Below, one piece after another: positions 2,576 to 39,409 of a stretch of DNA of 39,409 nucleotides. Origin of the DNA: a virus. The notes below the pieces were generated by a model, which saw only the letters and a list, made by a program, of their open reading frames with translations, did not search any database and was not told the origin of the DNA. A program made the position numbers and the translations under genes. Positions within the stretch are counted from its first letter, which is position 1. Each line of letters opens with the position of its first letter. Location of the stretch: positions 1 through 39,409 of IMG/VR virus record IMGVR_UViG_3300027386_000002; one strand, given 5' to 3'.

Positions 2576-3059
2576 GAAAATGCTTACACGCTCCTCCAAT
2601 TTCCAATTTTCACATCATTTGCCTCGAAATCGGGGCTGAGCGTCGTGAAATCTTGACGGAGAGCCTTGTTTTCGCGACGGAGAGCCTTGAAAACCGTTCA
2701 AATTTGACGAGAAATCGCGTCAAAAAAAATTTCTGTCGGAATTTTTGGAGAGACGAGAAATCAACGCAGATTTGCCATGATCGCGTCAAAAAAATTTCTC
2801 ATAGTAAAGTTTTGGAGAGGGCTTCAGCGGCTCGTGCCATCGGTGATTTTGCAAAGAATGTCAACGGTAGCGTGGCACTGCGCTCAGGCGAGAAACAGAC
2901 GCGGCGCAGCGGGAAACTAAAACGGGAGCACGGGATTTAAAGAGAGGGAGCACGCGGGAGCATGGCGGAGCGGAGCATTGCTGAAATCGGGTCAGAAAAA
3001 AATTTATCGGAAGTGAAGCCCTAAACGCGTCCCGTCGTCGTCGCCACCAACCCGAACCA
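2576..3059. promoter_or_regulatory. AT-rich non-coding block with iteron-like repeats; candidate replication origin or regulatory region
   Basis: gaaatcgNgtcaNaaaaaaatttNt occurs 3 times (about 2714-2734, 2780-2800, 2988-3008), ttttggagag twice and gacggagagccttg twice. Composition drops sharply in GC relative to both flanks. Confidence 0.35.
2814..2888 (+). repeat. Right copy of the approximately 75-nt direct repeat
   Basis: ggagagggcttcagcggctcgtgccatcggtgattttgcaaagaatgtcaacggtagcgtggcactgcgctcagg is roughly three-quarters identical to 2502-2575. Confidence 0.7.
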
Positions 3060-3088
3060 ATTATACTTGACAGTCTCCATCAAGTCAA
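3060..3088 (-). promoter_or_regulatory. Near-consensus sigma70-type promoter (TTGACT-17 nt-TATAAT) firing toward lower coordinates into the non-coding region
   Basis: The minus strand reads tgccTTGACTtgatggagactgtcaagTATAATtgg. The -35 box is at 3088-3083 and the -10 box at 3065-3060. No ORF of 60 aa or more lies downstream on the minus strand. Confidence 0.6.
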
Positions 3089-3156
3089 GGCATCACGCAT
3101 GGCGTCAACCGTCGCATCTGTTGCCGTGGTATCCCTTGCCTTGTCGGCCTTCTCGG

Positions 3157-8668: not shown

Positions 8669-9682
8669 ATGGCAATAAAGGTCAACGCATCGGGAGGGGA
8701 GCACGACCTGTGGCTGCCCGGCGACGAGCGCATCGAGGACTTGGAGCTGTTCACCAGCCAGCAGTTGGGCATGAACATCACGCCGGAGATGGTCCTTTCC
8801 CGCAGCAAGAAGAACCAGCAGTACAAGCGGGCCACGGCGCTGACCCGGCAGCAGGTCGACACCATCCTGTCGGTCAAGGAGCACCGGCGCACCGTCGTCC
8901 GGGGAGCGCACAGCCTGGGCAAGTCCGTGGCCATAGGCGTCTTGGGCTGTTGGTGGCTGACGCGCAAACGCGACAACATGGTGCTGATGGCGTCCGCCAA
9001 AGAGGATCAGGTGTCCAAGGTGCTGTTCCCCAACATGTTGGGCCACTACGTCCGGGCGTTCGGTAGGCGCGGCAAGCTGGGCGCACTGCAGGTCTATCCC
9101 GACCAGCTCGCCCATCCCAAGTGGTGCGCCATAGGCATCAGCGGCCAGAACACCGAGGCTTTCGCCAGCTACCACCCGCACGGCGACGGCGAGGTCTTGC
9201 TGGTAATCGATGAGGGCAGCGCCATGACCGACGCGCTGGCGCAGGCGGCCGAGGGGCTGATAAGCAGCGAGGCGGCGCGGATAGTGGTGCTGGGCAACCC
9301 GCTCAACACCCAGCCGCGCGATCCCTTCCGCGCCTTGTTCACCGACAAGCAGTACAATAGGATTCACTGGAAGACCAGCGAGCATCCCAACATCCAGCAT
9401 CAGAGGCCGATCTATCCTGGTTGCATCTCCCAAAAATGGATCAACGAGATGATTGAACGGCACGGGTTAGAGTCCGACCAGGTTCAGGCGCGTTGCTTCG
9501 GGGAGTTCCCGCCCATCAAGACCGACTCCGAGAAGGGCAAGCTCATCGACGTGAATGCCGTTGCCCAGTCATCGGGCTTGACCGTCGAGGAGATATTGGC
9601 CGAGATGCACAGCGAGGAACCGGAAGTAAAGGACCTGTTCCATTTCGTGGGGCAGGGACACACCTACTCACAGGGGGTATGA
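8669..9682 (+). CDS. Terminase large subunit, ATPase domain only (337 aa)
   Basis: It has Walker A VRGAHSLGKS and Walker B VLLVIDEGS, plus a linker-like motif FGEFP. The ORF stops about 60 aa later, with no RNaseH-like nuclease domain. Confidence 0.7.
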   Translation: MAIKVNASGGEHDLWLPGDERIEDLELFTSQQLGMNITPEMVLSRSKKNQQYKRATALTRQQVDTILSVKEHRRTVVRGAHSLGKSVAIGVLGCWWLTRKRDNMVLMASAKEDQVSKVLFPNMLGHYVRAFGRRGKLGALQVYPDQLAHPKWCAIGISGQNTEAFASYHPHGDGEVLLVIDEGSAMTDALAQAAEGLISSEAARIVVLGNPLNTQPRDPFRALFTDKQYNRIHWKTSEHPNIQHQRPIYPGCISQKWINEMIERHGLESDQVQARCFGEFPPIKTDSEKGKLIDVNAVAQSSGLTVEEILAEMHSEEPEVKDLFHFVGQGHTYSQGV

Positions 9683-10500
9683 TGAGACTACTATCGAACG
9701 ACGAGATCAAGGCCGGGTGTCAGGCGGCCAACATCATCCAGATGAGAGGTTGGGGCATCCGCGCCAACAGTCCCTTGGTCGGCAAGGGCGCGTTGGTCGA
9801 GGTGAAGGTGCAGGGCGGTGAGTGGTCCAACGCCAAAACGGGCGAGTCCGGGCAGATATGGAACATAGAGGCTTCATTCGTTCAGGAGATAGACGACCGC
9901 TCCGAGATCATGAACGTGCTCGACCGGATCATGGGCGAGGGGCCGATAGGGTTGTATGAGGATATATTCGCTCAGGGGTTTCGCAACCAGTTCGCCGCGA
10001 TATGCTGCCAAGGCAACATGCCAAGGGCACGGACGTTGATGCCGGCGTTCAAGCCCGAGGCGGAAGCATCGACCAGCGCCGCCAAGCGCGGATGCGCCAA
10101 CAGGGAGACCGAGGTAGCGGTGGAGTTTCAGGACATAATGAGCAATGCGACGACGAAGTGGTCGCCCTTCCAGCGACGCAACTATGCCAGGCCGAGGGAC
10201 AAGGCCGCGATCCACGGGCGCGAGTTGGCCAAGGCTACTACCATAGCCGTGGCGACGCATCCGACGCAACAGGGGATTAGTAGGATCAACCGCAGCAAAG
10301 GGGAGCAGCCCGCTCTGGATGCGCTATTGGCCGGTTGTTGGATACTCAATCGGGAGATCCAGAGGAGGTCGTTCAGGCCAAAGGCGGGGCCCAGAGCCGA
10401 CGAGCGTGGGGCATCACTGGACAGCGCCACGATGGCGCGATCGGTAGCAGAATCATCCCGACTCGACGGGGGCATCCTCCGTTTTCCTCGACAGCAATAG
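9679..10500 (+). CDS. Hypothetical protein (273 aa)
   Basis: Its start forms an ATGA overlap with the preceding stop. The N-terminal 110 aa or so look globular (KGALVEVKVQGGEWSNAKTGESGQIWNIEA has a weak OB-fold flavour). The C-terminal half is low complexity. The last 20 codons are read out of conserved element copy B. Confidence 0.5.
   Translation: MMRLLSNDEIKAGCQAANIIQMRGWGIRANSPLVGKGALVEVKVQGGEWSNAKTGESGQIWNIEASFVQEIDDRSEIMNVLDRIMGEGPIGLYEDIFAQGFRNQFAAICCQGNMPRARTLMPAFKPEAEASTSAAKRGCANRETEVAVEFQDIMSNATTKWSPFQRRNYARPRDKAAIHGRELAKATTIAVATHPTQQGISRINRSKGEQPALDALLAGCWILNREIQRRSFRPKAGPRADERGASLDSATMARSVAESSRLDGGILRFPRQQ
10421..10437 (+). repeat. Left copy of a perfect 17-bp direct repeat (acagcgccacgatggcg) flanking element copy B
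   Basis: The identical 17-mer recurs at 10542-10558. It contains the mini-hairpin cgcca-cga-tggcg. Confidence 0.9.
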
Positions 10501-10539
10501 TCCCGTACGGCGCGGAGTAAGGGGCCTCAATCCAGACCT
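10457..10539 (+). repeat. Conserved approximately 83-nt element, copy B
   Basis: It aligns with copies A and C. It lacks the upstream GTGGATA heptamers and sits inside a 104-nt segment (10438-10541) bounded by the 17-bp direct repeats. Confidence 0.85.
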
Positions 10540-10541
10540 GA

Positions 10542-10558
10542 ACAGCGCCACGATGGCG
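10542..10558 (+). repeat. Right copy of the 17-bp direct repeat
   Basis: acagcgccacgatggcg is identical to 10421-10437. Confidence 0.9.
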
Positions 10559-10635
10559 TGGTTGTAAGTTTAGCTTGGCTTAGGCGGCCAAAAAGAGGGC
10601 CGCCACGCCATAGCTTGAGTTATAGGATAGCACAC

Positions 10636-10687
10636 GGGCCGCCCTCGTCGCGCTGACGCGCGTTTTCGGGCGGCCCTTCTCTTTGTT
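10636..10687 (+). terminator. Rho-independent-type terminator after the packaging block
   Basis: The stem GGGCCGCCC / GGGCGGCCC encloses an inner cgcg hairpin and is followed by TTCTCTTTGTT. Confidence 0.5.
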
Positions 10688-11063
10688 CGGACGTCTTAGA
10701 TTTGAACTTAGGTAGTAGTCGCGTTTTGCCCCTCCCCACCCCCCGGGCCTTCCATTCTTGATAATCGTTATTTAAGGAGTAAAAACAGCAGATAGGGAGC
10801 GGGTGGTTGGTGGCGGGTTGGTCTGGCGTGGTTGGGCTTGGGTGCTGGAGAGCGCACAGTCTGGTGTGTGTAGTGGGCGGGTGCGCTGGCAGTCTCTACC
10901 GTCTTGTGTAGTTGTCCCCTTTAGGTGTTACCTTCTGTTCCCTTTGGGTATCAGTGCGCGTGCCGGTTGTGGCCGCGTGGCTGGGTGCATGTTTTGCACG
11001 TTGTAAGCAATTGTCTTGCAACGAGTTATGGGCAAGTTAATTGTTTCACATGGAACAATAGTT

Positions 11064-11080
11064 TGGCATGGTTTTTGCAT
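11064..11080 (+). promoter_or_regulatory. sigma54 (RpoN)-type -24/-12 promoter upstream of the first early gene
   Basis: TGGCATG-GTTT-TTGCAT matches the consensus TGGCACG-N4-TTGCW at 11 of 12 specified positions with exact spacing. It lies 41 nt upstream of ATG 11121. Confidence 0.6.
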
Positions 11081-11120
11081 ATATAGGGGTAACAGCAGTT
11101 CACTTCTCAGGAGGCTTGAG

Positions 11121-11486
11121 ATGAGAGTTATAGTTTGCGGTGGCAGAGATTATCACGATAGCGAGCGGGTCTGGCGGGTGCTGGACGGTATCCATGCGAG
11201 GGAGTGCATCCACGTCGTAGGGCATGGAGCGGCGCGGGGAGCGGATAGCTTGGCGGGAGCGTGGGCGAGGGAGCGCGGCGTGATGGAGTTCGCACGTCCA
11301 GCGCAGTGGACGGAGTATGGTAGAGCGGCGGGGCCAAGGCGCAATAGCGAGTTGCTCAGGGAAGTGAAGCCAGCGCTGGTGGTGGTGTTCCCCGGCGGAG
11401 CAGGCACGGCGGATATGCGGAGGAAGGCGCAGCGGCAGCGGGGCGTGAAGGTGGTGACGGTCGCCGAGTCGGGAGGTTCGTCGTGA
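11121..11486 (+). CDS. SLOG-superfamily DUF2493-like protein (121 aa)
   Basis: AGGAGG precedes the ATG. The blocks MRVIVCGGRDY...GHGAARGADSLAGAWARERGV...GPRRNSELL...VVVFPGGAGTADM match the DUF2493 pattern as I know it. Confidence 0.8.
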   Translation: MRVIVCGGRDYHDSERVWRVLDGIHARECIHVVGHGAARGADSLAGAWARERGVMEFARPAQWTEYGRAAGPRRNSELLREVKPALVVVFPGGAGTADMRRKAQRQRGVKVVTVAESGGSS

Positions 11487-11635
11487 ACCGCTTGGCGGTG
11501 GTGGCTTGGTGGGTATTGGTGGCCCTCGTCGTGGCGTCCGGCGGCCTGCTCGCGCCGCTGTTGTTGGTCGGGCTGGCATGGAAGAACCGGCCCGACCACG
11601 TACACCAGCCCGAATGGCTGAAGTGGTTGTGGTGA
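11483..11635 (+). CDS. Small membrane protein (50 aa)
   Basis: It starts at a GTG that forms a GTGA overlap with the upstream stop, with GGGAGG 7 nt upstream. It has one hydrophobic helix, VAWWVLVALVVASGGLLAPLLLVGLAW. It falls below the track cutoff. Confidence 0.5.
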   Translation: MNRLAVVAWWVLVALVVASGGLLAPLLLVGLAWKNRPDHVHQPEWLKWLW

Positions 11636-11723
11636 TAGTGCGTCCCCTCGTGGGACGCGGAGTGTTACCCAAGGGTTTGGGGGCCAGCACATAACCGCGC
11701 ACACGCGCAGGAGGATTGAGAAG

Positions 11724-11870
11724 ATGAAGACCTACGTCATAAGAACATGCGAAGGCGATGAGGAGGTCGCGTTACTCATAGAGAAGTGGGAAAGCTACGG
11801 ATGCTATCTGCACAGTTGGCAGTACGACAGAGAACACAACGAATGGATTATGGTATTTAAGGAGGGCTGA
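11724..11870 (+). CDS. Hypothetical small protein (48 aa)
   Basis: AGGAGG precedes ATG 11724, and the ORF is tightly packed against the next gene. It falls below the track cutoff. Confidence 0.5.
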   Translation: MKTYVIRTCEGDEEVALLIEKWESYGCYLHSWQYDREHNEWIMVFKEG

Positions 11871-11871
11871 C

Positions 11872-12066
11872 ATGAAACTCTGTTCAGACTTCGCCAGTGG
11901 GCCGCGGTTCGATGAGGCGCGGCACGAATTCGAGCGGCTGGAATCCGACCCCGACGCCACGCCGAGGCAGAGGGCCAGCGCATACAAGCGAATGATGAAG
12001 GCGCATAGGGCGCTACGAGTAGAGGCGACGGGCAAGGCCAAGCGACAGACGAAGGCATGGGAGTAG
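11872..12066 (+). CDS. Hypothetical protein (64 aa)
   Basis: The ORF has GGAGGG upstream and sits in the co-directional early block. Confidence 0.6.
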   Translation: MKLCSDFASGPRFDEARHEFERLESDPDATPRQRASAYKRMMKAHRALRVEATGKAKRQTKAWE

Positions 12067-12070
12067 GGCC

Positions 12071-12382
12071 ATGACCAACGCGCAAGAAACCTTCCTAGAG
12101 CGATTGCTTTTGAGCTCCGCCATCCCGCCAGCCGTTCGCAAGGATGCCCGTCGAGTCATGGCAGACCCGGAGGTGGGCGTTGAGCAGGTGACCATGTTGA
12201 TTGACCGAGTCAAGCAGATCATGGACGAAGCCCCACCGAAGGACCAGAGACCGGCAGCGTGGCGCGTGGCCAGCTTGCAAGCCAAGGTGAAGTATTACAA
12301 CCGGCGCGGCAGCAAGGCCAGCATCAAGCCGCTGGTGGCCGACATTGAATGGCTCGCAGAGCAGAAGGAGGTAGCACAATGA
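12071..12382 (+). CDS. Hypothetical protein (103 aa)
   Basis: The ORF is tightly spaced in the operon. Confidence 0.65.
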   Translation: MTNAQETFLERLLLSSAIPPAVRKDARRVMADPEVGVEQVTMLIDRVKQIMDEAPPKDQRPAAWRVASLQAKVKYYNRRGSKASIKPLVADIEWLAEQKEVAQ

Positions 12383-12798
12383 AGACTCGCATGAGATGGA
12401 ACTGCCAAAGCGACGGCTGCTTTTTCGACAAGAAGGTCGCAAGACTCGAAGACTTTGATGACTGCTTTGGTGGCAAGATAGGCATGACGGACGTCGATGG
12501 ACTGGTCGAGCGCAACGGGCACTTCCTGTTCGTTGAATGGAAAGCACCGGAAGAGAAGCTGCCAATGGGCCAACGCATTCTATTTGAGCAACTGACGAAG
12601 TTGTCAGACAAGGTCGTCGTCGTAGTGATACATGGTCATTCATCCATGAGCCAAGGATCGCACCCAGTTCAATACCAGACAGCCTACAAGGGAAGATGGT
12701 CGGCAGTGGAAGAAACCAACATAGACCGGCTAAGAGGATTCCTAAAGCGGTGGTACACGTGGGCAGACAACCAAGGAGACTTTCAATGGCACATGTAG
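12379..12798 (+). CDS. PD-(D/E)XK nuclease, VRR-NUC-like (139 aa)
   Basis: Its ATG forms an ATGA overlap with the upstream stop and GAAGGAGG lies upstream. The pattern GMTDVDGLVERNGHFLFVEWKAPEEKLPMGQ fits D...E.K...Q. Confidence 0.6.
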   Translation: MKTRMRWNCQSDGCFFDKKVARLEDFDDCFGGKIGMTDVDGLVERNGHFLFVEWKAPEEKLPMGQRILFEQLTKLSDKVVVVVIHGHSSMSQGSHPVQYQTAYKGRWSAVEETNIDRLRGFLKRWYTWADNQGDFQWHM

Positions 12799-13313
12799 CT
12801 AAAAACTCGGGCAACAATGAATGGTACACGCCACCAGAGATAATCGAGGCGGCGCGTAGGACGATGGGGAGGATAGACCTTGATCCGGCTTCAAACGAAG
12901 TAGCGCAACGCTGGATAGATGCGGGGAGCTACTACACGAAAGAGGACGACGGATTGCTCTTGTCGTGGGGAGGGCGCGTCTGGTTGAATCCGCCATACGA
13001 AGCGAAGCTGATCGGCCAGTTCGTGGACAAGCTGATCTCCTCAACTGGCATAGAGCAGGCCATCACCTTGACCAACAATGCCACCGAGACCAAGTGGGGT
13101 CAGAAGATATTGGCCAGCGCCAACGCCATCTGCTTCCCAAGCCAGCGCGTCAAGTTCCTCCGCCCCGAAGGCGAAAAGGGCAGCCCATTGCAGGGACAAA
13201 TGATAGCTGGTTTTGGCGTGGACAGAGTGCGCTTTGAGCAGGAGTTTGCACCACTGGGCGCGGTAGTCTTCACCTTGGTTCACTTGGGTAACAGTGATGT
13301 TTCCTTTAGGTAA
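12786..13313 (+). CDS. Phage Dam-type DNA N6-adenine methyltransferase (175 aa)
   Basis: It carries NEWYTPPEII, DLDPAS and WLNPPY (the catalytic NPPY), which match the phage N6A methylase family layout. Confidence 0.85.
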   Translation: MAHVAKNSGNNEWYTPPEIIEAARRTMGRIDLDPASNEVAQRWIDAGSYYTKEDDGLLLSWGGRVWLNPPYEAKLIGQFVDKLISSTGIEQAITLTNNATETKWGQKILASANAICFPSQRVKFLRPEGEKGSPLQGQMIAGFGVDRVRFEQEFAPLGAVVFTLVHLGNSDVSFR

Positions 13314-13356
13314 CACTTAGACGAAGGGGTTCATTGTGCCACAACAAGTTACAAGG

Positions 13357-13373
13357 TGGCACGGATTTTGCAA
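13357..13373 (+). promoter_or_regulatory. sigma54 (RpoN)-type -24/-12 promoter, perfect consensus
   Basis: TGGCACG-GATT-TTGCAA lies in the 116-nt gap between genes, 57 nt upstream of ATG 13430. Its -24 box is the right arm of the inverted repeat GTGCCAC-N13-GTGGCAC (13336-13362). Confidence 0.7.
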
Positions 13374-13429
13374 CGTAGTAGGACAACAGCAGAAGGGCAA
13401 TCCAGCCCACCAAACGAAGGAGAAGTGAG

Positions 13430-13837
13430 ATGGAAAGTCAGAAGGAAAGAATCCTAATGGCAGTGCTTGACCGGCTGCTAAGCTCGGACGACGAGGGCCA
13501 AGCCGAACGGGAGCGGCCAACCATAGCCACCAGAATCCCCATCGGTTCATACGTGGTGGTTCGTTGCCGCGACGCTGGCGTCCATGCCGGTGAGTTGGTC
13601 GCGTGGAGTGGGCGGACGGCGGAGTTGAAGGAGTCGCGCCGGCTGTGGCGTTGGCATCAGGCGCGTGGCGGACTACTAAGCGGCGTGGCCAACTACGGTC
13701 TCAACCACGAAAAGAGCATAGTCGGCTCCCCGTGCGACATCATCTTGACCGAGACGTGCGAGATAATCGCTTGCACCCACGAGGCGGCGCAGTCAATCGC
13801 CAATGCTCCCAACTCGCACGAGGAAGAGCAGGAGTAA
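13430..13837 (+). CDS. Hypothetical protein (135 aa)
   Basis: GAAGGAG precedes the ATG. The sequence looks globular. Confidence 0.7.
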   Translation: MESQKERILMAVLDRLLSSDDEGQAERERPTIATRIPIGSYVVVRCRDAGVHAGELVAWSGRTAELKESRRLWRWHQARGGLLSGVANYGLNHEKSIVGSPCDIILTETCEIIACTHEAAQSIANAPNSHEEEQE

Positions 13838-13838
13838 A

Positions 13839-14108
13839 ATGGTTGATCCAGTAAGGCGCGGCGACGGCTATAGCAAGGGAGATGGCAACGGCAGCGGAAG
13901 GGGATGGGGAGACGGTAGCGGATTCGGTTCGGGATTCGGTTCGGGATTTGGCAACGGCGAGGGCAACGGAGGAGGTTGGGGAGACGGTAGCGGGAGCGAT
14001 GACGGTAGCGGTAGCGGTAGCGGTTCGGGATTTGGCAACGGCGAGAGCGACGGAGGAGGTTGGGGAGACGGTAGCGGGAGCGGGAGGGATGACGGTAGCG
14101 GAGACTAA
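13839..14108 (+). CDS. (Gly-X)n repeat protein with W/F at X positions (89 aa), cassette copy 1
   Basis: The sequence is MVDPVRRGDGYSKGDGNGSGRGWGDGSGFGSGFGSGFGNGEGNGGGWGDG... The SD is gcaggag. Its paralog lies at 15786-16145. Confidence 0.65.
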   Translation: MVDPVRRGDGYSKGDGNGSGRGWGDGSGFGSGFGSGFGNGEGNGGGWGDGSGSDDGSGSGSGSGFGNGESDGGGWGDGSGSGRDDGSGD

Positions 14109-14135
14109 CCACCACCAACCAACGGAGGAAGCACG

Positions 14136-15785: not shown

Positions 15786-16145
15786 ATGGAAGGTTCCGAG
15801 CGCAGAGAAGCAATGCTAAACGGCGACGGCGACGGCGAGGGCAACGGGAGCGGTTGGGGTAACGGCTATGGAGACGGCAGCGGTTGGGGCAGCGGATACG
15901 GCGACGGATGCGGCAACGGATGCGGCAACGGATGCGGCAACGGGATAGGCGCAGGCAACGGGCGCGGTGACGGCTATGCCAGTGGCGCAGGAGACGGTCA
16001 CGGAGCCGGTTGGGGTAAAGGCGCAGGAGAAGGCGACGGCAAGGGAGACGGCTACGGAGAAGGCAACGGGTGGGGAGACGGATACGGCAGCGGCAGCGGC
16101 ATCAGCAACAGCATCAGCAACCCAAGGAGAGACAACGTTGAATAG
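15786..16145 (+). CDS. (Gly-X)n repeat protein with W/Y/C at X positions (119 aa), cassette copy 2
   Basis: The sequence contains GDGDGEGNGSGWGNGYGDGSGWGSGYGDGCGNGCGNGCGNG...GWGDGYGSGSG. Confidence 0.65.
   Translation: MEGSERREAMLNGDGDGEGNGSGWGNGYGDGSGWGSGYGDGCGNGCGNGCGNGIGAGNGRGDGYASGAGDGHGAGWGKGAGEGDGKGDGYGEGNGWGDGYGSGSGISNSISNPRRDNVE
15906..15941 (+). repeat. Perfect 3 x 12-nt tandem repeat (ggatgcggcaac) inside the Gly-X gene
   Basis: Three exact copies encode GCGN three times. Confidence 0.9.
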
Positions 16146-17648: not shown

Positions 17649-17665
17649 AGGAAAGGGACAGAGTG

Positions 17666-19189
17666 ATGGTAGAACTAACGAAGCACCAGCGCGAGCAGAT
17701 GGACATCGTAATCGACGCCATCGACGCCGGAGAAAGCCCGGCTGTGCTCGCGGGCGCAGCGGGAACCGGCAAGACGACGTGCATGGGCATCTTGGCAGGA
17801 CAGTGGCCAAAGGTGCTGTTCCTTGCACCCACCAACCGCGCAGCGCTCGTGCTGCGCTCCAAGCTACAACAAGGTGCGCGCGTATCCACCATTCACTCCG
17901 CTTGCATGAGGGTCAAGCGCGAGACGCACGAACAGGAGATAAAGCTACTCAGGGCCCTTGTCCGGCAGGCCGAAGACTTGGAGGTATTGGCCGAGGGCAT
18001 CGGGAAGGCGACCGAGGAGAAGAAGGCACGCGCCGAAGTGCTCAAGGGACTGGTGGGGATTGACCTTGACGCGCCGGACAAGATAGTTCGCCAGAAGCTC
18101 GTCAGGATGTTGAGACAAGCGGAGCGCGACAACGAGATAATCTTCGAGGGCGCGAGCGAGAAAGACGAAGAGACAGTCAGCCATATCGTCATAGACGAGG
18201 CGAGCATGGTAACAAACGAGATGGTCGAGCACGTCGAAGCGAAGTTTGCGACCATCCCGATATTGCTTGTCGGCGACGACCACCAGCTTGAGCCGGTCAT
18301 CTCGGACCAAGAGCGCGGCAAGGGTATCGTACCGGCCATGACGGGCGAGCCAACGGCGCGACTGGACGAGGTGATGAGGCAGGCCGAGGGCAGCCGGATA
18401 CTGCGGTTTGCCACGTGGATACGCAAGCAGAAGACCGCGCTCAAGTTGGTACGCTTCGCCGACAAGGGGGAAGCGGACGAGCAGCTACGCATCACGCGGC
18501 GGCCCAAGTCGGGCATCACCAAGGGGCTGTTGCGGCAGTTAGACGAGATCATTGGCCCTCAGTTCTCCGGCGTGGTCTTGTCGCGGCGCAACGACACCAG
18601 GCGCACCATCAACAGAGGCTTGCGCCAGCTCAGGGGATGGGACGAAGGGGAGCCTAAATGGCTACCGGCGGACGGGGAGCGTTTGGTGTGCGTAACCGCG
18701 CCCTCTCGTAGGGCGCTCGAAGAGGAACAGGCCATTGACCCAATCGAGGGCGAGGCGGTAGCATGGGATTCGCCGTTGAACCGGGTGGTCAAGGGAACCA
18801 TCGTATTCGTCGAGAGCACACAGATGGTCGGCGATGCGCGTGGCTACCAGTTCGTGCGGCTGGCAGCGCGGGTTGAGGGCGAGGAGACAGTATTCACAGC
18901 GCACGTGGCCGCCGGGGAGTTCCTGCGAACATACCAGCTCGACGAGGGACGGGATTATGGATTCTCCCCGAGAGGTTGGTACGGTTTTGATTATGGCATG
19001 GCGATGAGTGTTCACAAGGCGCAGGGCAGCGAGTTCGATAACGTGGCCGTGTACGAGCAGGCCGCGCCGTGGCAGCCGGATGAGAACGGCAAGTGGTTGA
19101 GGCCGTCGAGGGAGGAGCATAGGAAGTGGGCCTACACCGCAGCGACGAGGGCCAAGGAGAAACTTTTGTGGGTTAGCATGCCACTGTGA
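17666..19189 (+). CDS. RecD/Dda-like SF1B DNA helicase (507 aa)
   Basis: It has Walker A GAAGTGKT, motif II VIDEASMV and the C-terminal motif SVHKAQGSEFDNVAV. Confidence 0.85.
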   Translation: MVELTKHQREQMDIVIDAIDAGESPAVLAGAAGTGKTTCMGILAGQWPKVLFLAPTNRAALVLRSKLQQGARVSTIHSACMRVKRETHEQEIKLLRALVRQAEDLEVLAEGIGKATEEKKARAEVLKGLVGIDLDAPDKIVRQKLVRMLRQAERDNEIIFEGASEKDEETVSHIVIDEASMVTNEMVEHVEAKFATIPILLVGDDHQLEPVISDQERGKGIVPAMTGEPTARLDEVMRQAEGSRILRFATWIRKQKTALKLVRFADKGEADEQLRITRRPKSGITKGLLRQLDEIIGPQFSGVVLSRRNDTRRTINRGLRQLRGWDEGEPKWLPADGERLVCVTAPSRRALEEEQAIDPIEGEAVAWDSPLNRVVKGTIVFVESTQMVGDARGYQFVRLAARVEGEETVFTAHVAAGEFLRTYQLDEGRDYGFSPRGWYGFDYGMAMSVHKAQGSEFDNVAVYEQAAPWQPDENGKWLRPSREEHRKWAYTAATRAKEKLLWVSMPL

Positions 19190-19203: not shown

Positions 19204-19419
19204 ATGGCAAAGAGGAAGTTCAAAGCAAAGAGCAGCATCGTCCGCAAATACCGTTCAGAGATAGACAAAGCGGCCAGTTGGGAGCGGCTGGAGGATATAG
19301 TAGTAAGCATAGACAACGCCTTTGAGCAGAGGGCCATAGGAGGAGAGCACGTGGACCGGCTATGCGAGCGGGTGGCCAAACGGGCCAGAGAAATTGACCG
19401 ACGCAAGCGGCGCAAGTAG
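19204..19419 (+). CDS. Hypothetical basic protein (71 aa)
   Basis: AGGAGG lies upstream of ATG 19204. Confidence 0.6.
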   Translation: MAKRKFKAKSSIVRKYRSEIDKAASWERLEDIVVSIDNAFEQRAIGGEHVDRLCERVAKRAREIDRRKRRK

Positions 19420-19450
19420 GTTGGTAGGCCCACCAAATGGAGCTATTACA

Positions 19451-21427
19451 ATGCTGACATCCCAACACCGAGAGTATTTAGAGCGCCGCGCCGTTGATCC
19501 AGACCAGTTTCCGGGCCGGTTCCGGTCCGTAGAGGGCAGCGACACACGTCTCGCCAACTTCGCGCCGCACAACAAACGGGCGGGGCTGTTGATTCAGTCC
19601 GGCGACAGGTACCAGCTCAGACCGGATTCGCCACCGCACAGCAACGGCAAGACAGCTAAATTCGTCTGCGAATCTGGACTTGCGCCCATCATCGACCTAC
19701 CAGACAGCGAGGTGCTCGAAGGCGACGGGCCGGTCGCAATCGTCGAAGGTCTCGTGAAGGCGGACGCGGTGCGGATGTGTTGGCCGGACGCTTGCGTCAT
19801 CGGTATCACCGGCTGTTCGACATGGGCAGAGCAGGGAACGCGCTACGGGCGATTACAAGGCGCGTTAGAGCGAGTACCGTGGAAGGGCCGCGACACCTAC
19901 ATCATCTTTGACGCAGACGCCGAGACGAACGGGAACGTCAAGCGAGCGGAAAAGGCATTCAGCCAAAGGTTGCGCGAGCAGGGCGCGGCGGTGCACGTGG
20001 TCAAAGTGCCGGTGCTCGAAGGCGACGAGACCGCCGGTATAGACGACGTGCTCGCATCACACCAACCGAAGCACCGGGCCAGCGCGTTGGCCAAGCTCAT
20101 CGAGGAAGCGCCCGTGATGCAGGGGCGCGGGGGGCCAAGGAAGAGGGCTGGCAGGCCCAGCGAGGACAAGCGCCCCGACTCGCCCCACGAGCTTGCCGTC
20201 GTGTGCTGCGGCTCCGGCAACTGGACGACGATGGACGGCCAGACAGCCCACTACGAGCGCAATGCGGGGCTATGGACGAAGTTGTCGCGGGAGTCGGTAG
20301 GGGAGGTGGCCTGTTACCCGGAATACACCGAGCCCATCAACTTGGAGCCAACCAGCGGGATTAGAAAGATGGTTCCAAGCTGCATCTTGGGGATTCTCAA
20401 TTTGCGAGGGCCAGCACCGGCAGCGCCTCGTAGGTTGTGGCCGTTCGCTTCCGAGGTCATGGACGTGGACACCGGCGACATGATGGACTACGAGCGCGGC
20501 CACTACTTCACCGAGAAGCTCGACTACGATCCAGACCCCAACGCGGACGGCAGGCCGGAGCTATTCGGCCAGTTCCTATACAGCGCGTTCCAGTCCAGCG
20601 AGATGGTCCATTGGGCCGAGCGACTGTTGACATACATCCTGTTCGAGCACAACCGCCACCAGCGTCTAATCGTCTGGCAGGGCGTCCCAGGCAGCGGCAA
20701 GGGCGTGCTGATGGGTCTGCTTGGCGACATGATGGGGAGCCAGCACTTGGCGACGCTAAACGAGCGACTGGCGTGGGAGGAAGCAACCTGGGCGTTGATG
20801 CCGTTGGCCGGTGCCAGGGTGGCCATCCTTCCAGAGACCAACAGAGGCTTGCCAGCGCACACGGCCAAGGCGATAACCGGCCACGACCAGATTGCCGCTG
20901 CGCCGAAGGGCGGCCACCAGATTTCATTCGTCTATCGCGGACACCTGATCTACTCCACCAACAAGCAGCTTAGCATGTCAGACCCGGGCATGGAAAGGAG
21001 GCTGTTGACGCTGCCATTCACCGGAAAGCCAGCCGTGGTGGACACCGAGTTACCGGCCAAGCTAAGGGAACTCAGGCCACAGATATGGACGCACTTGTGG
21101 GAGTTGTGGCAGGAGGTCAAAGACGACCCATTAGAGCCGCCAGCAATGGCACAGGATGCCAGCCGGGCCACCACCGGCGGCGACTGGGAGGAATGGGCCG
21201 AGGAGCGACTTGAGATAGACCTACAAGACGGCAACACCGAGACAACCGCTATGCTCGTATGGGATTATCTGGTATGGAAAGGGGAGGACGCGACCGACGA
21301 GAAGGAGAAAAGGAACGCAGCCAACAAGATGAGGCGCAAGGCTCCGGGGCTTGGGTTGATAGCGGCGGGGCGTGGCGCGTGGCGATGCAAACTGAAAGAA
21401 GAGGAGGCCAATGGCAACGTACAATAA
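19451..21427 (+). CDS. Primase-helicase: Toprim-like (DUF3854-type) N-domain plus P4/D5-family SF3 NTPase (658 aa)
   Basis: The N-domain has VAIVEGLVKADA and YIIFDADAETNGNV, a Toprim-like acidic pattern. The C-domain has the P-loop GVPGSGKGVL. GGAG lies 8 nt before ATG 19451. Confidence 0.7.
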   Translation: MLTSQHREYLERRAVDPDQFPGRFRSVEGSDTRLANFAPHNKRAGLLIQSGDRYQLRPDSPPHSNGKTAKFVCESGLAPIIDLPDSEVLEGDGPVAIVEGLVKADAVRMCWPDACVIGITGCSTWAEQGTRYGRLQGALERVPWKGRDTYIIFDADAETNGNVKRAEKAFSQRLREQGAAVHVVKVPVLEGDETAGIDDVLASHQPKHRASALAKLIEEAPVMQGRGGPRKRAGRPSEDKRPDSPHELAVVCCGSGNWTTMDGQTAHYERNAGLWTKLSRESVGEVACYPEYTEPINLEPTSGIRKMVPSCILGILNLRGPAPAAPRRLWPFASEVMDVDTGDMMDYERGHYFTEKLDYDPDPNADGRPELFGQFLYSAFQSSEMVHWAERLLTYILFEHNRHQRLIVWQGVPGSGKGVLMGLLGDMMGSQHLATLNERLAWEEATWALMPLAGARVAILPETNRGLPAHTAKAITGHDQIAAAPKGGHQISFVYRGHLIYSTNKQLSMSDPGMERRLLTLPFTGKPAVVDTELPAKLRELRPQIWTHLWELWQEVKDDPLEPPAMAQDASRATTGGDWEEWAEERLEIDLQDGNTETTAMLVWDYLVWKGEDATDEKEKRNAANKMRRKAPGLGLIAAGRGAWRCKLKEEEANGNVQ

Positions 21428-30918: not shown

Positions 30919-30984
30919 GAGAAAAACCTTCTTTCGTTAGTTTCAATCGTTCCAAAGATACCAATACAGCGCAGTAGCAACAAA

Positions 30985-33900
30985 TTAAATGCCAAGGAAG
31001 TTAAAGAAGCGCCTAATGATTCCCTGAAGTGCCGGGTCGAATTCAAAATCGCCAAAGAAGCCGTCGTCGTTCCTCGGGGCCAAAGAAACCAGTATGCCGG
31101 TGCCGACAGTCGAGAAGGTGTTGGCTTCATGGGGAGCGAGCAAGATGGTAGTGACGCTGAGGCTGACGGGAACGGGTAGCTGAGCAAACTGCGCTTCAAA
31201 CGATTGGATGGTCTGATCGACGGCAGCCCTGTAAGAGCCAACGAACTGCTGGTAGTAGATACGCGCACCCACCTCATAGCCCTGGAAAGAGCCTTGGGGC
31301 TGGCGCAGTTGGGTGTCAATCGAATCGCGCATGCGGCCGGTTACGACTGGACAAAGCTCGCGCAACCGCTGTTCAACCAGCGCGGTGATCTGCATGAGGA
31401 ACTCGAGATTACTGCCTTCGAGGTGCGGCGGCACGAACTCAGTGGTGTTGGGCAAGAACCATACCTCAACGGAAGGGATGCTTTGGCCGTTATCATCGGC
31501 GGGACTTATCGCGGGGACGACGTTGAGGAAGCCCCCGTGGGTGAGGTTCTCTTTGAGGGCGTTTCCTTCCGCGATGGCCGTTGGGATGACGCTGTTGTAG
31601 TCGTCGTCGTCAATCGCGTCAGAGTGGTTCGATCCGATGATGAGGCCGAAGCGTTCGCCTTCTTGATAGGAGTAGATGCCAATGGTGACGTGGAGCAGGC
31701 TACCGGTCACGCCCCCTTGGATGATGCCGAGGATGGAGTTGGCGAGGTTTAGCGCGTCCGTAGCAATAGGGGTGTCGAAGTCGGCCGGGTCCAGCGATGG
31801 GCGAGGGTCGTAGTCTCTGTAGTTGTCCGTATCCGCATCGTCCGGGTCGCCACCAATGATATTGCCGTCTATGTCGTACACGGTGAACTCGCCGGTAGTC
31901 TCGTCCAAGACGGTGAAGTATCCAGTGGCCGGGTCATACGAGAAGTCAGGAGCACCTTCCATCAGGAAGAAGACGCCGTTGCGGTCGATGCCTATCCAGC
32001 GGTCGCCTATCGCGTCGTAGAAGTAGGGGAAGAACCGCTGCCCTATGTCGATGGGGCCCTGATCAACGCGGCCACCGGGCCTCTGACGGGGAACGCCCAT
32101 TTGCGGGGGGATGATGTTGAGGTCTTCGAGCGGGATGGGGTAGCCCTCCTCATCGACGATGACCGGGCGGCCATGCTGATCGAGTCCAATCCAATGGCCA
32201 ATCGTATCGTCGTAATAGATATCGCCGACGTAGGTGTCCGGATCATATTCATCGATGCCGCCGTCGCCAGTTCGGTCTTCCGGGCGGGTTATGTTGGCCC
32301 ATATCGGGTTGCCATTGTCGTCCGTGCCCACCTGTTCGCCGCCGGGGAAGTAGCCTTCGAGGTTCGCTTGGACGACGTGGCGGCCACCGGACTGTTCCTG
32401 GACGAAGTGCCCAATCTCCGGGTCGTAATACATGTTATCGGGCAGCGTGGCGAACATCTGGGCGAGGCGTTGGCGTCCATTGGGCGTCGAGTCGTCCGGC
32501 AGCTCGGTAATGGGTATCGGCGGAGTGCCGTCCGTGAACTCCGCCCGGTCTATCTCGACATAGCCCCGGTTAGAGTCGTAGAAGTAGAGCGTCGGATCTG
32601 ATCCGCCGAGCGGGTTCCTTGGGCTGTCGAATGCACCCCGGGGCGGACGGCCTTCGGTATCGAAGTGGTCTGAGAAGTCCGCTTGAATGACGTGGCGGCC
32701 TTGTGAGTCTATCTCAATGAAGTGCCCAATCTCCGGATCGTAATAGACGTTATCCGGCAGGCTGGAGAACAGGTTGGCGAGGGCGCGGCGTCCGGCGGGC
32801 GTGCTGGCGTCCGGCAACTCCGTGCGGGGGATGGGGCCTTCGCCGTCGGAAAACTCACTGCGATCTATCCTGTAGAGTCCGACGTTCGGGTCGTAGTAGT
32901 AGAGGTCGGGCTGGGCCGGGGAGGCGTCGAAAGAAGGATCGGGCCGATCTTCGTCAACCGGAGTGCCGCCACCGCCACCGGTATCGCCAGTGCCACCGGT
33001 ATCGCCGCTACCAGGAACATCGCTCCTGCCAGTGCCACCGGTATCACCGCTGCCAGTACCGCCCGGGTCGCCGTAATCGTATATGATGACCACGTTGCGG
33101 GGATCAATATCCAAATGGAGGATTTGGAGATAAAGAACAATGACATATTCAATCTCGCTCTCGTGGACTGGCCAGTCGGGGCGACCATAGACGGTGGAAA
33201 CAAGGTCAGAATAGCGTACCTGTAATTCAACGTCGTCGTCGTCATCTACTGTCGTGGGCTTGGCCGCGATGAAGCCAGCGGGATTGGCACCCGGGCTCTC
33301 ATCCTCGTCGTCATCATCGTCGTCCGAGGGGGTCTGGCCTAACGTTCCTCCTTGCTGAATCTCGATCTGACGGCGACGTTCATCCTCTTCACGCTGTCTG
33401 CGCCGCCGATCCTCTTCCTCTTGTTGACGCCGTAGAATCTCTTGCTCTATAAGCTCCTGTCGGCGTCGTTCCTCTTCGGCGCGCCGCCGGTCTTCTTCCG
33501 CTTGGCGGCGTCGTTCGGCCTCCGCTGCTTGGCGGCGTCGTATCTCATCTTCCAGCGCTTGCAGGCGACGCCGTTCTTCTTCGGCCTCCTCTTCGCGCCT
33601 GCGTTCTTCTTCCTCGCGACGCCGCCGTTCCTCTTCTTCTTCCTGTTCACGCCGCCGGCGGTCCGCCTCCTCCTGTGCCCGTCGTTCGCGCCGCCGTCTA
33701 TCCGCCTCCTGCTGTGCACGTCGTCGCCGGTCGGCCTCTTCCTGTGCACGTCGTTCGCGCTCTTCTTGTTCGCGTTGCTCTCGTTCGCGCCGGCGGCGGT
33801 CGGCCTCCTCCTGGATCAGTCTATCCCGCTCCTCCCGGTCTCGGTCGCGCTGTTCTTGTTCGCGACGCTCTCGTTCCTCTTGTTCGCGCCGCCGCCGTTC

Positions 33901-34581
33901 CGCTTCTTGTTCGCGCCGTTCCCGCTCTTCTTCCTCGCGCCGTTCCCGTTCCTCGCGCCGCCGCCGTTCCTCAATCTGACGGCGCATCTCCTCTTCGCGC
34001 CGACGACGATCCTCTAATTCGCGGTCTTCGCGTTCCTGCTCCGCTTCCCGCCGCCGGTCTTCTTCCTCCTCAGCCTCAAGACGTCGCCGTTCCTCTTCGG
34101 CTTCCCGTCGCTCCCGTTCAGCTTCGCGCTCCTCTTCCTCCCGTTCGCGCCGTTCATCTTCCTCTTCTTGACGCTGACGTTCCTCCTCATCATCATCGTC
34201 ATCACCAGAAGGGGTGCGGGGCTGGCCCAGTGTTCGCCGTTGTTCCGCTTCGATTCGACGCCGACGTTCTTCGGCCTCTCTTCGCGCCCTCAGTTCGCGT
34301 TGTCTGCGCTCCTGTTCCTCGTAGGCTTCTATAGCCGCACGGCGACGACGGTCGGCCTCATTTCGACGCCTATCTTCCGCCTGGCGCCTCTGAATCTCAA
34401 GGATAGGGTTAGAACCGCCGGCCGCTTCGTCCGAGTCGAAGCGCTCAAGGTCATCACCACCGGCGGGCTCGTCCGAGTCGAAGCGCTCAAGGTCATTGAG
34501 TTGACCGCCGCCAACGTCATCGGGGTCTTGGCCACTCGAACGGGTGATAATCACCTCGTTGGGATGAAACCAACGGGCCAT
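30985..34581 (-). CDS. Large virion protein (1198 aa): Glu/Arg-only helical segment, Gly-rich linker, tandem beta-hairpin repeat modules and a C-terminal globular domain; possible internal/ejection or tail-needle protein
   Basis: Its start forms a TGATG overlap with the upstream stop. Residues about 62-430 are almost exclusively E/R/Q/A/D. GDTGGTG repeats follow, then YYDPEIGHF-type repeats. The gene order does not fit a canonical tape measure. Confidence 0.7.
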   Translation of the reverse strand: MARWFHPNEVIITRSSGQDPDDVGGGQLNDLERFDSDEPAGGDDLERFDSDEAAGGSNPILEIQRRQAEDRRRNEADRRRRAAIEAYEEQERRQRELRARREAEERRRRIEAEQRRTLGQPRTPSGDDDDDEEERQRQEEEDERREREEEEREAERERREAEEERRRLEAEEEEDRRREAEQEREDRELEDRRRREEEMRRQIEERRRREERERREEEERERREQEAERRRREQEERERREQEQRDRDREERDRLIQEEADRRRREREQREQEERERRAQEEADRRRRAQQEADRRRRERRAQEEADRRRREQEEEEERRRREEEERRREEEAEEERRRLQALEDEIRRRQAAEAERRRQAEEDRRRAEEERRRQELIEQEILRRQQEEEDRRRRQREEDERRRQIEIQQGGTLGQTPSDDDDDDEDESPGANPAGFIAAKPTTVDDDDDVELQVRYSDLVSTVYGRPDWPVHESEIEYVIVLYLQILHLDIDPRNVVIIYDYGDPGGTGSGDTGGTGRSDVPGSGDTGGTGDTGGGGGTPVDEDRPDPSFDASPAQPDLYYYDPNVGLYRIDRSEFSDGEGPIPRTELPDASTPAGRRALANLFSSLPDNVYYDPEIGHFIEIDSQGRHVIQADFSDHFDTEGRPPRGAFDSPRNPLGGSDPTLYFYDSNRGYVEIDRAEFTDGTPPIPITELPDDSTPNGRQRLAQMFATLPDNMYYDPEIGHFVQEQSGGRHVVQANLEGYFPGGEQVGTDDNGNPIWANITRPEDRTGDGGIDEYDPDTYVGDIYYDDTIGHWIGLDQHGRPVIVDEEGYPIPLEDLNIIPPQMGVPRQRPGGRVDQGPIDIGQRFFPYFYDAIGDRWIGIDRNGVFFLMEGAPDFSYDPATGYFTVLDETTGEFTVYDIDGNIIGGDPDDADTDNYRDYDPRPSLDPADFDTPIATDALNLANSILGIIQGGVTGSLLHVTIGIYSYQEGERFGLIIGSNHSDAIDDDDYNSVIPTAIAEGNALKENLTHGGFLNVVPAISPADDNGQSIPSVEVWFLPNTTEFVPPHLEGSNLEFLMQITALVEQRLRELCPVVTGRMRDSIDTQLRQPQGSFQGYEVGARIYYQQFVGSYRAAVDQTIQSFEAQFAQLPVPVSLSVTTILLAPHEANTFSTVGTGILVSLAPRNDDGFFGDFEFDPALQGIIRRFFNFLGI

Positions 34582-38759: not shown

Positions 38760-38788
38760 TTGCTGGATTACGTTAGATTACGTAGTAT
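38760..38788 (+). promoter_or_regulatory. Candidate sigma70-type promoter TTGCTG-17 nt-TAGTAT for the zinc-finger gene
   Basis: It abuts the right arm of the dyad element. Its spacer contains gattacgt twice. Confidence 0.4.
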
Positions 38789-38813
38789 TATGTCCATTAA
38801 TAGGAGGCGTCTA

Positions 38814-39314
38814 ATGATGACCCAATGCGAAGGATGTAGCGTTCTAATAAGCCAGCCAGCAAAGGGAAGGCGTAGGAGATTCTGTAGCGATGCTTGTAGG
38901 AAAAGACTGCGTCGTATAGAGAACGGTCCTAACTATCCCGTAATAGAGTGCGCCAATGAAGGATGCACAGAGCGCTTTGAGAAGTGGAGCCATAACCACC
39001 GATTCTGTTCGGCTACCTGTAGGAATGCGGCCCAGTATCGGCGCAATAAGCCCCCATCAGAGGAAGTATGGATAGAGTGCGCTTCTGAATGGTGCAATGA
39101 GCATTTCAAGCGCGTCCACCCAAACCAGCGCTATTGTAGCGCTTCTTGTAGAGGCGGCGATATATCCATGTTCGGCGATCCATTGCCAGAAGATTGGGGA
39201 GAGCGGCTGGAGGAGAAGGCTAATCAGCGGCGAGCGTCTAATGGAAGACCCATAAAGCCCGGACAAGGATACTCTTTACCCTATCCGGGGCGAGCGGCTA
39301 ATGGAGAAGACTAA
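38814..39314 (+). CDS. Triple FCS/TRASH-like zinc-finger protein (166 aa)
   Basis: AGGAGG lies 5 nt before ATG 38814. It has three repeats of C-x2-C-x11-13-(F/Y)CS-x2-CR: CEGC...RFCSDACR, CANEGC...RFCSATCR and CASEWC...RYCSASCR. Confidence 0.7.
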   Translation: MMTQCEGCSVLISQPAKGRRRRFCSDACRKRLRRIENGPNYPVIECANEGCTERFEKWSHNHRFCSATCRNAAQYRRNKPPSEEVWIECASEWCNEHFKRVHPNQRYCSASCRGGDISMFGDPLPEDWGERLEEKANQRRASNGRPIKPGQGYSLPYPGRAANGED

Positions 39315-39409
39315 CCAGCGGCGTGGATACGTGGATAGTGATGTGGATAAGCGGCGCTATTATGCCCGACTCGACGGGGGCTTGTTCCATATCCCTCGAC
39401 AGCAATAGT
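39311..39409. repeat. Terminal 99-bp overlap identical to 1-99
   Basis: It is an exact duplicate of the window start and includes the first 45 nt of element copy A. Confidence 0.9.

Follow-up and report, generated by a model that had tools for sequence, protein, structure and literature searches.

Candidate sigma54 promoters with tandem enhancer-like repeats ahead of DNA-metabolism and replication genes in a phage from sponge metagenomes

The DNA analysed here is the IMG/VR virus record IMGVR_UViG_3300027386_000002, positions 1 to 39,409 (from here: the window, meaning this whole stretch of 39,409 nucleotides). It contains two elements, P_A and P_B, that match the -24/-12 consensus of promoters read by the alternative sigma factor sigma54 (RpoN) at 11 and 12 of the 12 defined positions, and each is preceded by a tandem pair of 18-nt near-palindromes with the consensus TGTTCCCTTTGGGTAACA. 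P_A stands in front of a plus-strand gene block opened by a gene for a SLOG-domain protein, and P_B in front of the part of that block that leads to a helicase and a primase. We consider it probable (at roughly 0.65) that P_A and P_B are sigma54-dependent promoters opened by a host enhancer-binding protein (EBP) of the NtrC family acting at the tandem TGTTCCCTTTGGGTAACA sites. Since both promoters are of consensus quality and carry enhancers, and the phage has no activator gene, the genes behind them are probably on only when a nutrient-sensing activator of the host is active.

A sigma54 promoter stays silent unless an ATPase activated by a signal opens it, and phages usually start transcription from sigma70 promoters or bring their own polymerase. 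An original prediction, made from the letters of the window, had placed a sigma54-type promoter at 11064 in front of the SLOG gene. At the level of sequence, motif, spacing, placement, a second copy, enhancers and position-specific conservation all agree with that promoter reading; P_B and both enhancer pairs had been overlooked.

Promoters P_A and P_B and their paired upstream repeats

The promoters and their upstream elements are the following.

Promoter P_A: 11064-11079, plus strand, sigma54-type -24/-12 element TGGCATGGTTTTTGCA, with GG at 11065-11066 and GC at 11077-11078; 20.8 bits
Promoter P_B: 13357-13372, plus strand, TGGCACGGATTTTGCA, agreeing with the sigma54 consensus at 12 of 12 positions; 20.7 bits
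Repeat A1: 10913-10930, plus strand, TGTCCCCTTTAGGTGTTA, enhancer pair of P_A
Repeat A2: 10936-10953, plus strand, TGTTCCCTTTGGGTATCA, starting 23 bp from the start of A1
Spacer between enhancer and P_A: 10984-11059, plus strand, with GGTGCATGTTTTGCAC at 10984-10999 and imperfect palindromes such as ATTGTTTCACATGGAACAAT at 11040-11059
Repeat B1: 13276-13293, plus strand, TGGTTCACTTGGGTAACA, enhancer pair of P_B
Repeat B2: 13298-13315, plus strand, TGTTTCCTTTAGGTAACA, forming GTAACA-N16-GTAACA together with B1

At P_A, 11 of the 12 defined positions equal TGGCACG-N4-TTGCW; the sole mismatch, C to T at -21, is tolerated by the consensus, and the base directly after TGGCATGGTTTTTGCA, at 11080, is T. 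The RpoN match claimed for this position, with its exact GG-N10-GC spacing, could thus be read back in the sequence. The claimed gap of about 41 nt to the SLOG gene was likewise found: its ATG lies at 11121, 40-41 nt from P_A, with an AGGAGG ribosome-binding site at 11109-11114 in between. P_B occupies the next intergenic gap, 57 nt ahead of the start of a gene for a DUF6948 protein. At both sites the GG and GC doublets are exactly 10 nt apart, and both are intergenic and co-oriented with the following gene. From the position of the elements we infer transcription starts near 11089-11091 for P_A and near 13383 for P_B, which would give leaders of about 30 and 46 nt that end in the Shine-Dalgarno sequences AGGAGG (P_A) and AAGGAG (P_B).

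Consensus matches with at most one mismatch number two in the window against 0.36 expected, and two or more occurred in 4 of 100 shuffled sequences. When up to two mismatches are allowed, 6 matches stand against 6.5 expected; as this is chance level, the signal is limited to the two best sites. Scoring with an approximate sigma54 position weight matrix (PWM), a check proposed along with the original prediction, set P_A (20.8 bits) and P_B (20.7 bits) far above the next best hit (13.0 bits) among about 79,000 positions. Over 200 shuffles the top score reached at most 20.2, below the 20.8 of P_A, and the second-best at most 17.8, below the 20.7 of P_B. The third hit, TGGCATTTAATTTGTT at 30979-30994 on the minus strand (about 60 nt before an ATG at 30918), was rejected: it lacks the GC of the -12 element, has no enhancer nearby and scores within the range of the shuffles. 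The chance-level count with two mismatches would fit a view of P_A and P_B as fortuitous matches without function, but that view is effectively refuted by the fact that they are the two top-scoring sites, are associated with enhancers and show position-specific conservation in four lineages.

The near-palindromes of each pair start 22-23 bp apart. The P_A pair (10913-10953) lies about 110-150 bp upstream of the -24 element, and the P_B pair (13276-13315), which overlaps the 3' end of a Dam methylase gene, 42-81 bp upstream; the P_B spacer is only 41 nt long. A pattern search of the genome for the near-palindrome gave three matches against 0.03 expected, and a repeat finder added the fourth copy, so that the 18-nt element is present in the genome only as the tandem pairs upstream of P_A and P_B. 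Enhancer-like repeats, for which a search had been suggested upstream of the promoter, are therefore present as pairs 50-150 bp upstream of the promoters.

Two familiar readers of such sites were considered and set aside. NifA sites (TGT-N10-ACA) and NtrC sites (TGCACC-N5-GGTGCA) misfit the phage repeats, which have the form TGT-N12-ACA, in spacing and in half-sites. The element GGTGCATGTTTTGCAC in the P_A spacer was tried as an NtrC site and also rejected; its NtrC-like half-sites are in the wrong order, and while it is kept in two relatives of the phage (L053 and L056, see below) it is absent at promoter P1 of a third, L064. The elements in the P_A spacer possibly serve DNA bending or as an operator. 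An Rfam search of the regulatory regions of the phage gave no match.

Could sigma54 holoenzyme bind at these places without productive transcription, as a roadblock or insulator, or so that host sigma54 is titrated? Sigma54 is reported to form stable closed complexes without an activator, and the same source places many Escherichia coli sigma54 sites inside genes (PMC4591121). P_A and P_B, by contrast, are intergenic, co-oriented with their genes, followed by a proper leader and a ribosome-binding site and equipped with a dedicated paired enhancer. Moreover, a simple scan for sigma70-type promoters found 0 sites in 10300-13500, i.e. no alternative promoter for these operons. We regard non-productive binding as very improbable.

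The promoter is not tied to the SLOG gene family, since a P_A-type motif is absent upstream of the SLOG genes in 44 other phage loci carrying them. In 445 kb of such unrelated loci, two sites with at most one mismatch were found, neither of them upstream of a SLOG gene.

Conservation of the cassettes in relatives of the phage

No close relatives were found in INPHARED, nor in IMG/VR when the DUF6948 protein, the primase and the enhancer pattern were used as queries. As relatives we used contigs encoding graded homologues of the DUF6948 protein and of the portal. Three diverged relatives, the sample names of which point to sponge virome studies, hold eight further enhancer-promoter cassettes:

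L053: DUF6948 protein 92% identical; two cassettes
L056: DUF6948 protein 74% identical; two cassettes, TGGCACGATTATTGCT and TGGAACGGAATTTGCG
L064/L065: portal 85% identical; three perfect sites (TGGCACGGTTTTTGCA twice, TGGCACGGAATTTGCA) and a fourth cassette

In this last L064 cassette the -24 element reads TAGCAC, and an inserted methylase-HNH gene lies beside it. At this place (L064 700-2300, minus strand of the locus), the cassette is duplicated on either side of the inserted N6/N4-methylase-HNH gene; TAGCAC replaces TGGCAC in the upstream copy, where the scaffold also includes a run of N.

The sites orthologous to P_A in L053, L056 and L064 retain GG and GC, and GG-N10-GC is intact in nine of the ten cassettes of the four lineages, one L064 paralogue having AG for GG. 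Changes between cassettes sit at degenerate positions, for example in TGGCACGATTATTGCT of L056. When the ten cassettes of the window and its relatives were anchored on TGG, the mean frequency of the commonest base was 0.94 over the 12 defined sigma54 positions and 0.75 over the N4 spacer, compared to 0.54 over the upstream flank (-30 to -1) and 0.51 over the downstream flank (+16 to +49). This peak suggests that selection acts on exactly the bases read by sigma54.

The same pattern bears on a different reading, in which the 16-mer is a phage-specific promoter or operator for a phage-encoded factor and its likeness to a -24/-12 element is coincidental. Conservation of TATATAGGGGTAACAGCAGTTCAC downstream of the -12 element among P_A-type copies, as in promoters of phage polymerases, would suit such a factor, and no family match was obtained for two large proteins of 1198 and 760 aa. 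Both, however, sit in the tail-gene block; there are only two copies of the element per genome, the domain scans gave no RNA polymerase or sigma domain, conservation peaks exactly on the 12 positions that define sigma54 promoters, and the linked enhancer matches a bacterial sigma54 enhancer (below). We consider this reading quite improbable.

The P_A enhancer pair is kept in L053, L056 and L064, and the P_B pair in L056 and L064, with DNA between enhancer and promoter that is not homologous between lineages; the spacer of L064 P1, for instance, has three copies of GGTTGCCCGTGTGCYGCG where the window has GGTGCATGTTTTGCAC and palindromes. The distance from enhancer to promoter ranges from about 46 to 175 bp, with GTAACA subsites at -46 to -148 and the L064 P1 sites reaching to about -175. 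Variable distance across non-homologous DNA is the behaviour of a position-flexible enhancer. Judged by these comparisons, enhancer and promoter form a modular, duplicable cassette that appears limited to one phage lineage.

Beside the cassettes, a motif combining a hairpin with a ribosome-binding site, CGCGCACACGCGCAGGAGG, recurs just before several early-gene start codons in the relatives (L053, L056, L064). In L056 it is found at 328-346 and 636-654; it is missing from the P_A leader of the window.

Gene content, candidate activators and a bacterial look-alike

The window ends, 1-99 and 39311-39409, are identical over 99 nt. This exact terminal overlap identifies the record as a circular assembly and a complete genome of about 39.3 kb; its GC content is 60%. 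The minus strand carries a Mu-type portal, a ClpP-like protease, the major capsid protein and the tail block, the plus strand the terminase block, a non-coding region of 600 nt and then the long block opened by the SLOG gene. The order in this block is SLOG, small open reading frames (ORFs), VRR-NUC-like, Dam, P_B, DUF6948, Dda-like helicase, primase, methylase, tail fibre and SLT lysozyme. Its parts next to the two promoters are:

Non-coding region: 10521-11120, no strand assigned, 600 nt between the terminase block and the SLOG gene
First gene downstream of P_A: 11121-11486, plus strand, YAcAr/SLOG-domain protein of 121 aa (PF10686, E=3e-20)
Genes after the SLOG gene: plus strand, small ORFs, VRR-NUC-like gene at 12379-12798, Dam methylase gene ending at 13313
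First gene downstream of P_B: 13430-13837, plus strand, DUF6948 protein of 135 aa

The block headed by the DUF6948 gene runs on to the Dda-like helicase (17663-19189) and the primase (19394-21427). Within the non-coding region, a GC-rich hairpin at 10636-10676 with a T-rich tail is likely the terminator of the preceding operon.

The original prediction had stated that the phage encodes no activator. In the six frames of the whole genome there is no GAFTGA, GESGTGK or RpoN-box motif. About 60 selected ORFs, among them every ORF of at least 200 aa, were scanned with Pfam and PHROG, and none matched an EBP, a sigma factor, an RNA polymerase or any recognisable transcription factor; one zinc-finger match, at 38760-39314, is in fact an HNH endonuclease. 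With neither an activator motif nor a domain match in the complete circular genome, the statement holds.

A phage protein might nevertheless bind the repeats of sigma54-dependent promoters, as an activator, a co-factor or a repressor modulating a host EBP, with sigma70-transcribed immediate-early genes switching on the sigma54 block. Most small ORFs have no family match, and a DNA-binding protein among them is conceivable; the stretch from the enhancer to P_A has additional conserved elements and palindromes; and small ORFs that might encode early regulators form a block of their own behind a good sigma70 promoter. Against this stand the complete genome without an AAA+ activator carrying a GAFTGA loop, a feature that to our knowledge every sigma54 activator has as an AAA+ ATPase, and the close match of the repeats to a bacterial enhancer in a bacterial sigma54 context. 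We think a phage protein in this role unlikely.

The sigma70 promoter in question is the best of the genome:

Sigma70-type promoter: 3088 to 3060, minus strand, TTGACT-17-TATAAT, 11 of 12 positions

Behind it come about 450 nt of non-coding DNA in which AAATTTTTTTGACGCGAT is repeated, and then small minus-strand ORFs (2599 to 414) without annotation. The minus-strand region 2600-3100 could be the true immediate-early region or a replication origin. Because this promoter heads a separate small-ORF block, the SLOG block with its sigma54-type promoters may be delayed-early. That P_A heads the "first early" operon is not established, as the block headed by the sigma70 promoter may precede it.

Further features were noted in passing. 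The large terminase subunit is apparently split: the ORF at 8669-9682 (plus strand) is the ATPase part, with Walker A at 8903 and a match to PHROG 2, and no family match was obtained for the ORF that overlaps it in another frame (9493/9793-10500); L064 and L065 likewise have two ORFs (371 and 244 aa). At 13920-14125 and 15820-16121, tandem repeats of 12-84 nt lie within small early genes and apparently encode Gly/Asn/Ser-rich repeats; one of these genes has a weak TrAA12-like Pfam match. A dense array of tandem repeats of 15-69 nt occupies 33300-34150, inside the minus-strand gene for the 1198-aa protein, and ORFs overlapping this array have extreme GC contents at third codon positions (0.96-0.98).

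Metagenomes of Aplysina aerophoba, a Mediterranean sponge, contain the same phage (runs SRR8092709, SRR8092710 and SRR8092756, named as runs of this sponge in bioRxiv 10.1101/2024.01.09.574914). A search for the host by way of the portal found no relative among 185,579 species genomes, and no tRNA genes were found in the phage genome.

To see whose enhancer the phage pairs resemble, the pattern TRGGTAACA-N4-TG-N7-TRGGTAACA was searched in IMG/VR, in JGI metagenomes and in 596 Gb of genomes. IMG/VR gave no match. The JGI metagenomes gave eight unrelated repeats, none of them beside a sigma54 motif of at least 14 bits, which represents a chance baseline only. The 596 Gb of genomes gave exactly two matches, in homologous loci of two metagenome-assembled genomes (MAGs) labelled 'Proteobacteria bacterium':

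MAG locus L066: JAJZUM010000011, 2470-2883, minus strand
MAG locus L067: JAJZHM010000027, 7525-7950, plus strand

In both, the tandem TGTTACC-N4-GGTAACA enhancer, TGTTACCTAAGGGTAACA-N4-TGTTACCTAA..., precedes by 90-115 bp a GG-N10-GC promoter in the correct orientation, which reads TGGCATACTTCATGCT at one locus and TGGCACAGTTCATGCT at the other and scores 14.2-14.3 bits. Downstream follow about 290 nt that are 51-52% A, with 16-25 AAnAAnAA motifs, and then a terminator, in a small-RNA gene located between a BBP2 porin gene and aat. These features are hallmarks of the CrcZ-type RNAs that act as Hfq/Crc sponges, and by its sequence the MAG RNA resembles a small RNA of the CrcZ kind, found beyond the Pseudomonadaceae for which such RNAs are described.

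Phage and MAG loci have in common the tandem arrangement of 18-nt palindromes at an interval of 22 bp, their position about 100 bp ahead of a GG-N10-GC promoter, and a TATATAG-like sequence after the -12 element; the MAG palindrome agrees with the phage consensus, taken as its reverse complement, at 15 of 18 positions. As the MAG loci were found with the phage pattern, likeness at the pattern positions is by construction. They differ from the phage in the -12 region, which is ATGCT and not TTGCA, in their product, an A-rich non-coding RNA, and in their place on a bacterial chromosome.

In Pseudomonas, crcZ and crcY are driven by sigma54 together with the NtrC-family activator CbrB, whose site upstream of their promoters is TGTTAC-N12-14-GTAACA-N15-19-GTAACA (PMC8871633; PMC6296734). 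In the phages, P_B, L056 A, L056 B and L064 X have the spacing GTAACA-N16-GTAACA, which agrees with the N15-19 given in the literature for R1 and R2 (centres 20-25 bp apart). Most copies carry GTAACA unchanged, and the forward half is TGTTCC, TGTTTC or TGTTAC. From the enhancer match in the MAGs and the fit to the CbrB spacing we infer a host activator that is CbrB-like and of the NtrC family. Among the sites compared, those read by CbrB appear to be the ones that the phage enhancer most resembles, although the fit is partial.

The combination also turned up in an unrelated viral contig, L077 (IMGVR_UViG_3300036985_004658). At 12322-12440, in a divergent intergenic region, GTAACA-N16-GTAACA is followed by two tandem sigma54-class motifs, TGGCATGGTAGTTGCA and TGGCATGGCCATTGCA, of 17.8 bits each, and two TGTTAC hexamers are also present. 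This hints that an enhancer combined with sigma54 elements is not unique to the present lineage.

A number of points weigh against sigma54-dependent promoters opened by such a host activator. On the side of the promoters, the PWM behind the bit scores is our own approximation of published frequencies. The cassettes are paralogues as well as orthologues, so that part of their conservation is shared ancestry; the N4 spacer is itself 75% conserved, and the P_A-type copies are alike, too, over 20-30 nt behind the -12 element. Neither a sigma54 motif nor an enhancer is present in L057, L058, L060 and L061 (DUF6948 58-73% identical) or in L062 and L063 (portal 50-55% identical), and L061 has a sigma70-like TTGACA-17-TACATT ahead of its DUF6948 gene; with the more distant relatives lacking the elements, the system is confined to one lineage.

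On the side of the activator, CbrAB is described as restricted to Pseudomonadaceae (PMC8871633). The forward half-site is spaced by N6 in the phage (TGTTCC-N6-GTAACA) compared to N12-14 between F1 and R1 in Pseudomonas; the 6-nt spacing is shared by phage and MAG loci. Integration host factor (IHF) is involved at Pseudomonas crcZ and crcY, whereas a regular-expression search found no IHF consensus (WATCAANNNNTTR-like) in either enhancer-promoter spacer of the phage; the Pseudomonas target is a small RNA, whereas the phage targets are protein-coding operons. An Rfam search did not recognise the MAG small RNA as CrcZ, and no cbrB-like or other EBP gene adjoins the small-RNA gene at either MAG locus. 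Finally, the MAGs have a GC content of 48-51% versus 57-60% for the phage, which marks them as analogues and not as the host.

Comparison with known systems and biological meaning

The -24/-12 architecture with paired upstream sites resembles that of glnAp2 with NtrC and nifH with NifA, in which paired dimer sites lie on the same helix face about 70-150 bp upstream of the promoter. Sigma54 use by a phage is already known: according to a later account of its original description, Pseudomonas phage YuA needs sigma54 in addition to sigma70 (Ceyssens et al. 2008, as cited in PMC10914365). To call a dependence on host signalling unusual for a phage, as the original prediction did, is thus fair, with YuA as a precedent. 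YuA, too, is a tailed phage without its own RNA polymerase that uses host sigma54 for part of its programme, and no phage EBP is annotated in its record NC_010116. There is no sequence relationship between the two phages. The -24/-12 promoters of YuA belong to the head, tail and lysis (late) region, whereas in the window phage they lie ahead of the genes for DNA metabolism and replication; with the same approximate PWM no YuA site reaches 14 bits, and TGTTAC/GTAACA subsites are absent from them, whereas the window sites are of consensus grade and have paired enhancers. What appears to be new relative to YuA, as far as the sequences go, is the combination of consensus-grade promoters heading replication genes, a recognisable enhancer and conservation across four lineages.

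If P_A and P_B work as sigma54-dependent promoters, the sigma54 holoenzyme of the host would bind them as closed complexes. A host AAA+ EBP of the NtrC family would bind the tandem TGTTCCCTTTGGGTAACA sites 50-150 bp upstream, loop the DNA and open the promoters using ATP. Transcripts would then start from about 11090 and 13383, both beginning with (U/C)AACAGCAG, the P_A transcript expressing the block from SLOG to Dam and the P_B transcript the block from DUF6948 to helicase and primase. Expression would follow the activity state of the EBP and, if that protein is CbrB-like, would be high on poor carbon sources. The DNA-metabolism and replication genes of the phage would in this way be tied to the nutritional signalling of the host, CbrB being the carbon-status regulator that drives CrcZ in Pseudomonas. 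On this reading the replication module of the phage is wired to host signalling, probably to carbon or nitrogen status. It would provide a simple, regulator-free means to delay or abort development in hosts of the wrong physiological state, and such physiological gating could matter in slow-growing sponge symbionts. Consensus promoters, a recognisable enhancer and four diverged lineages make this a sequence-defined case in which the enhancer could be used for finding the host.

A further-reaching proposal, which we put forward tentatively and at lower confidence, is that a lineage of phages of sponge symbionts adopted the whole enhancer-promoter arrangement of a CrcZ-type small-RNA gene of the host (sigma54 plus a CbrB-like carbon-status activator) and, with two to four modular, duplicable cassettes of it, drives its genes for DNA metabolism and replication, so that host nutrition gates the infection without a phage regulator. 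If this is true, CbrB/CrcZ-like circuits exist outside Pseudomonadaceae.

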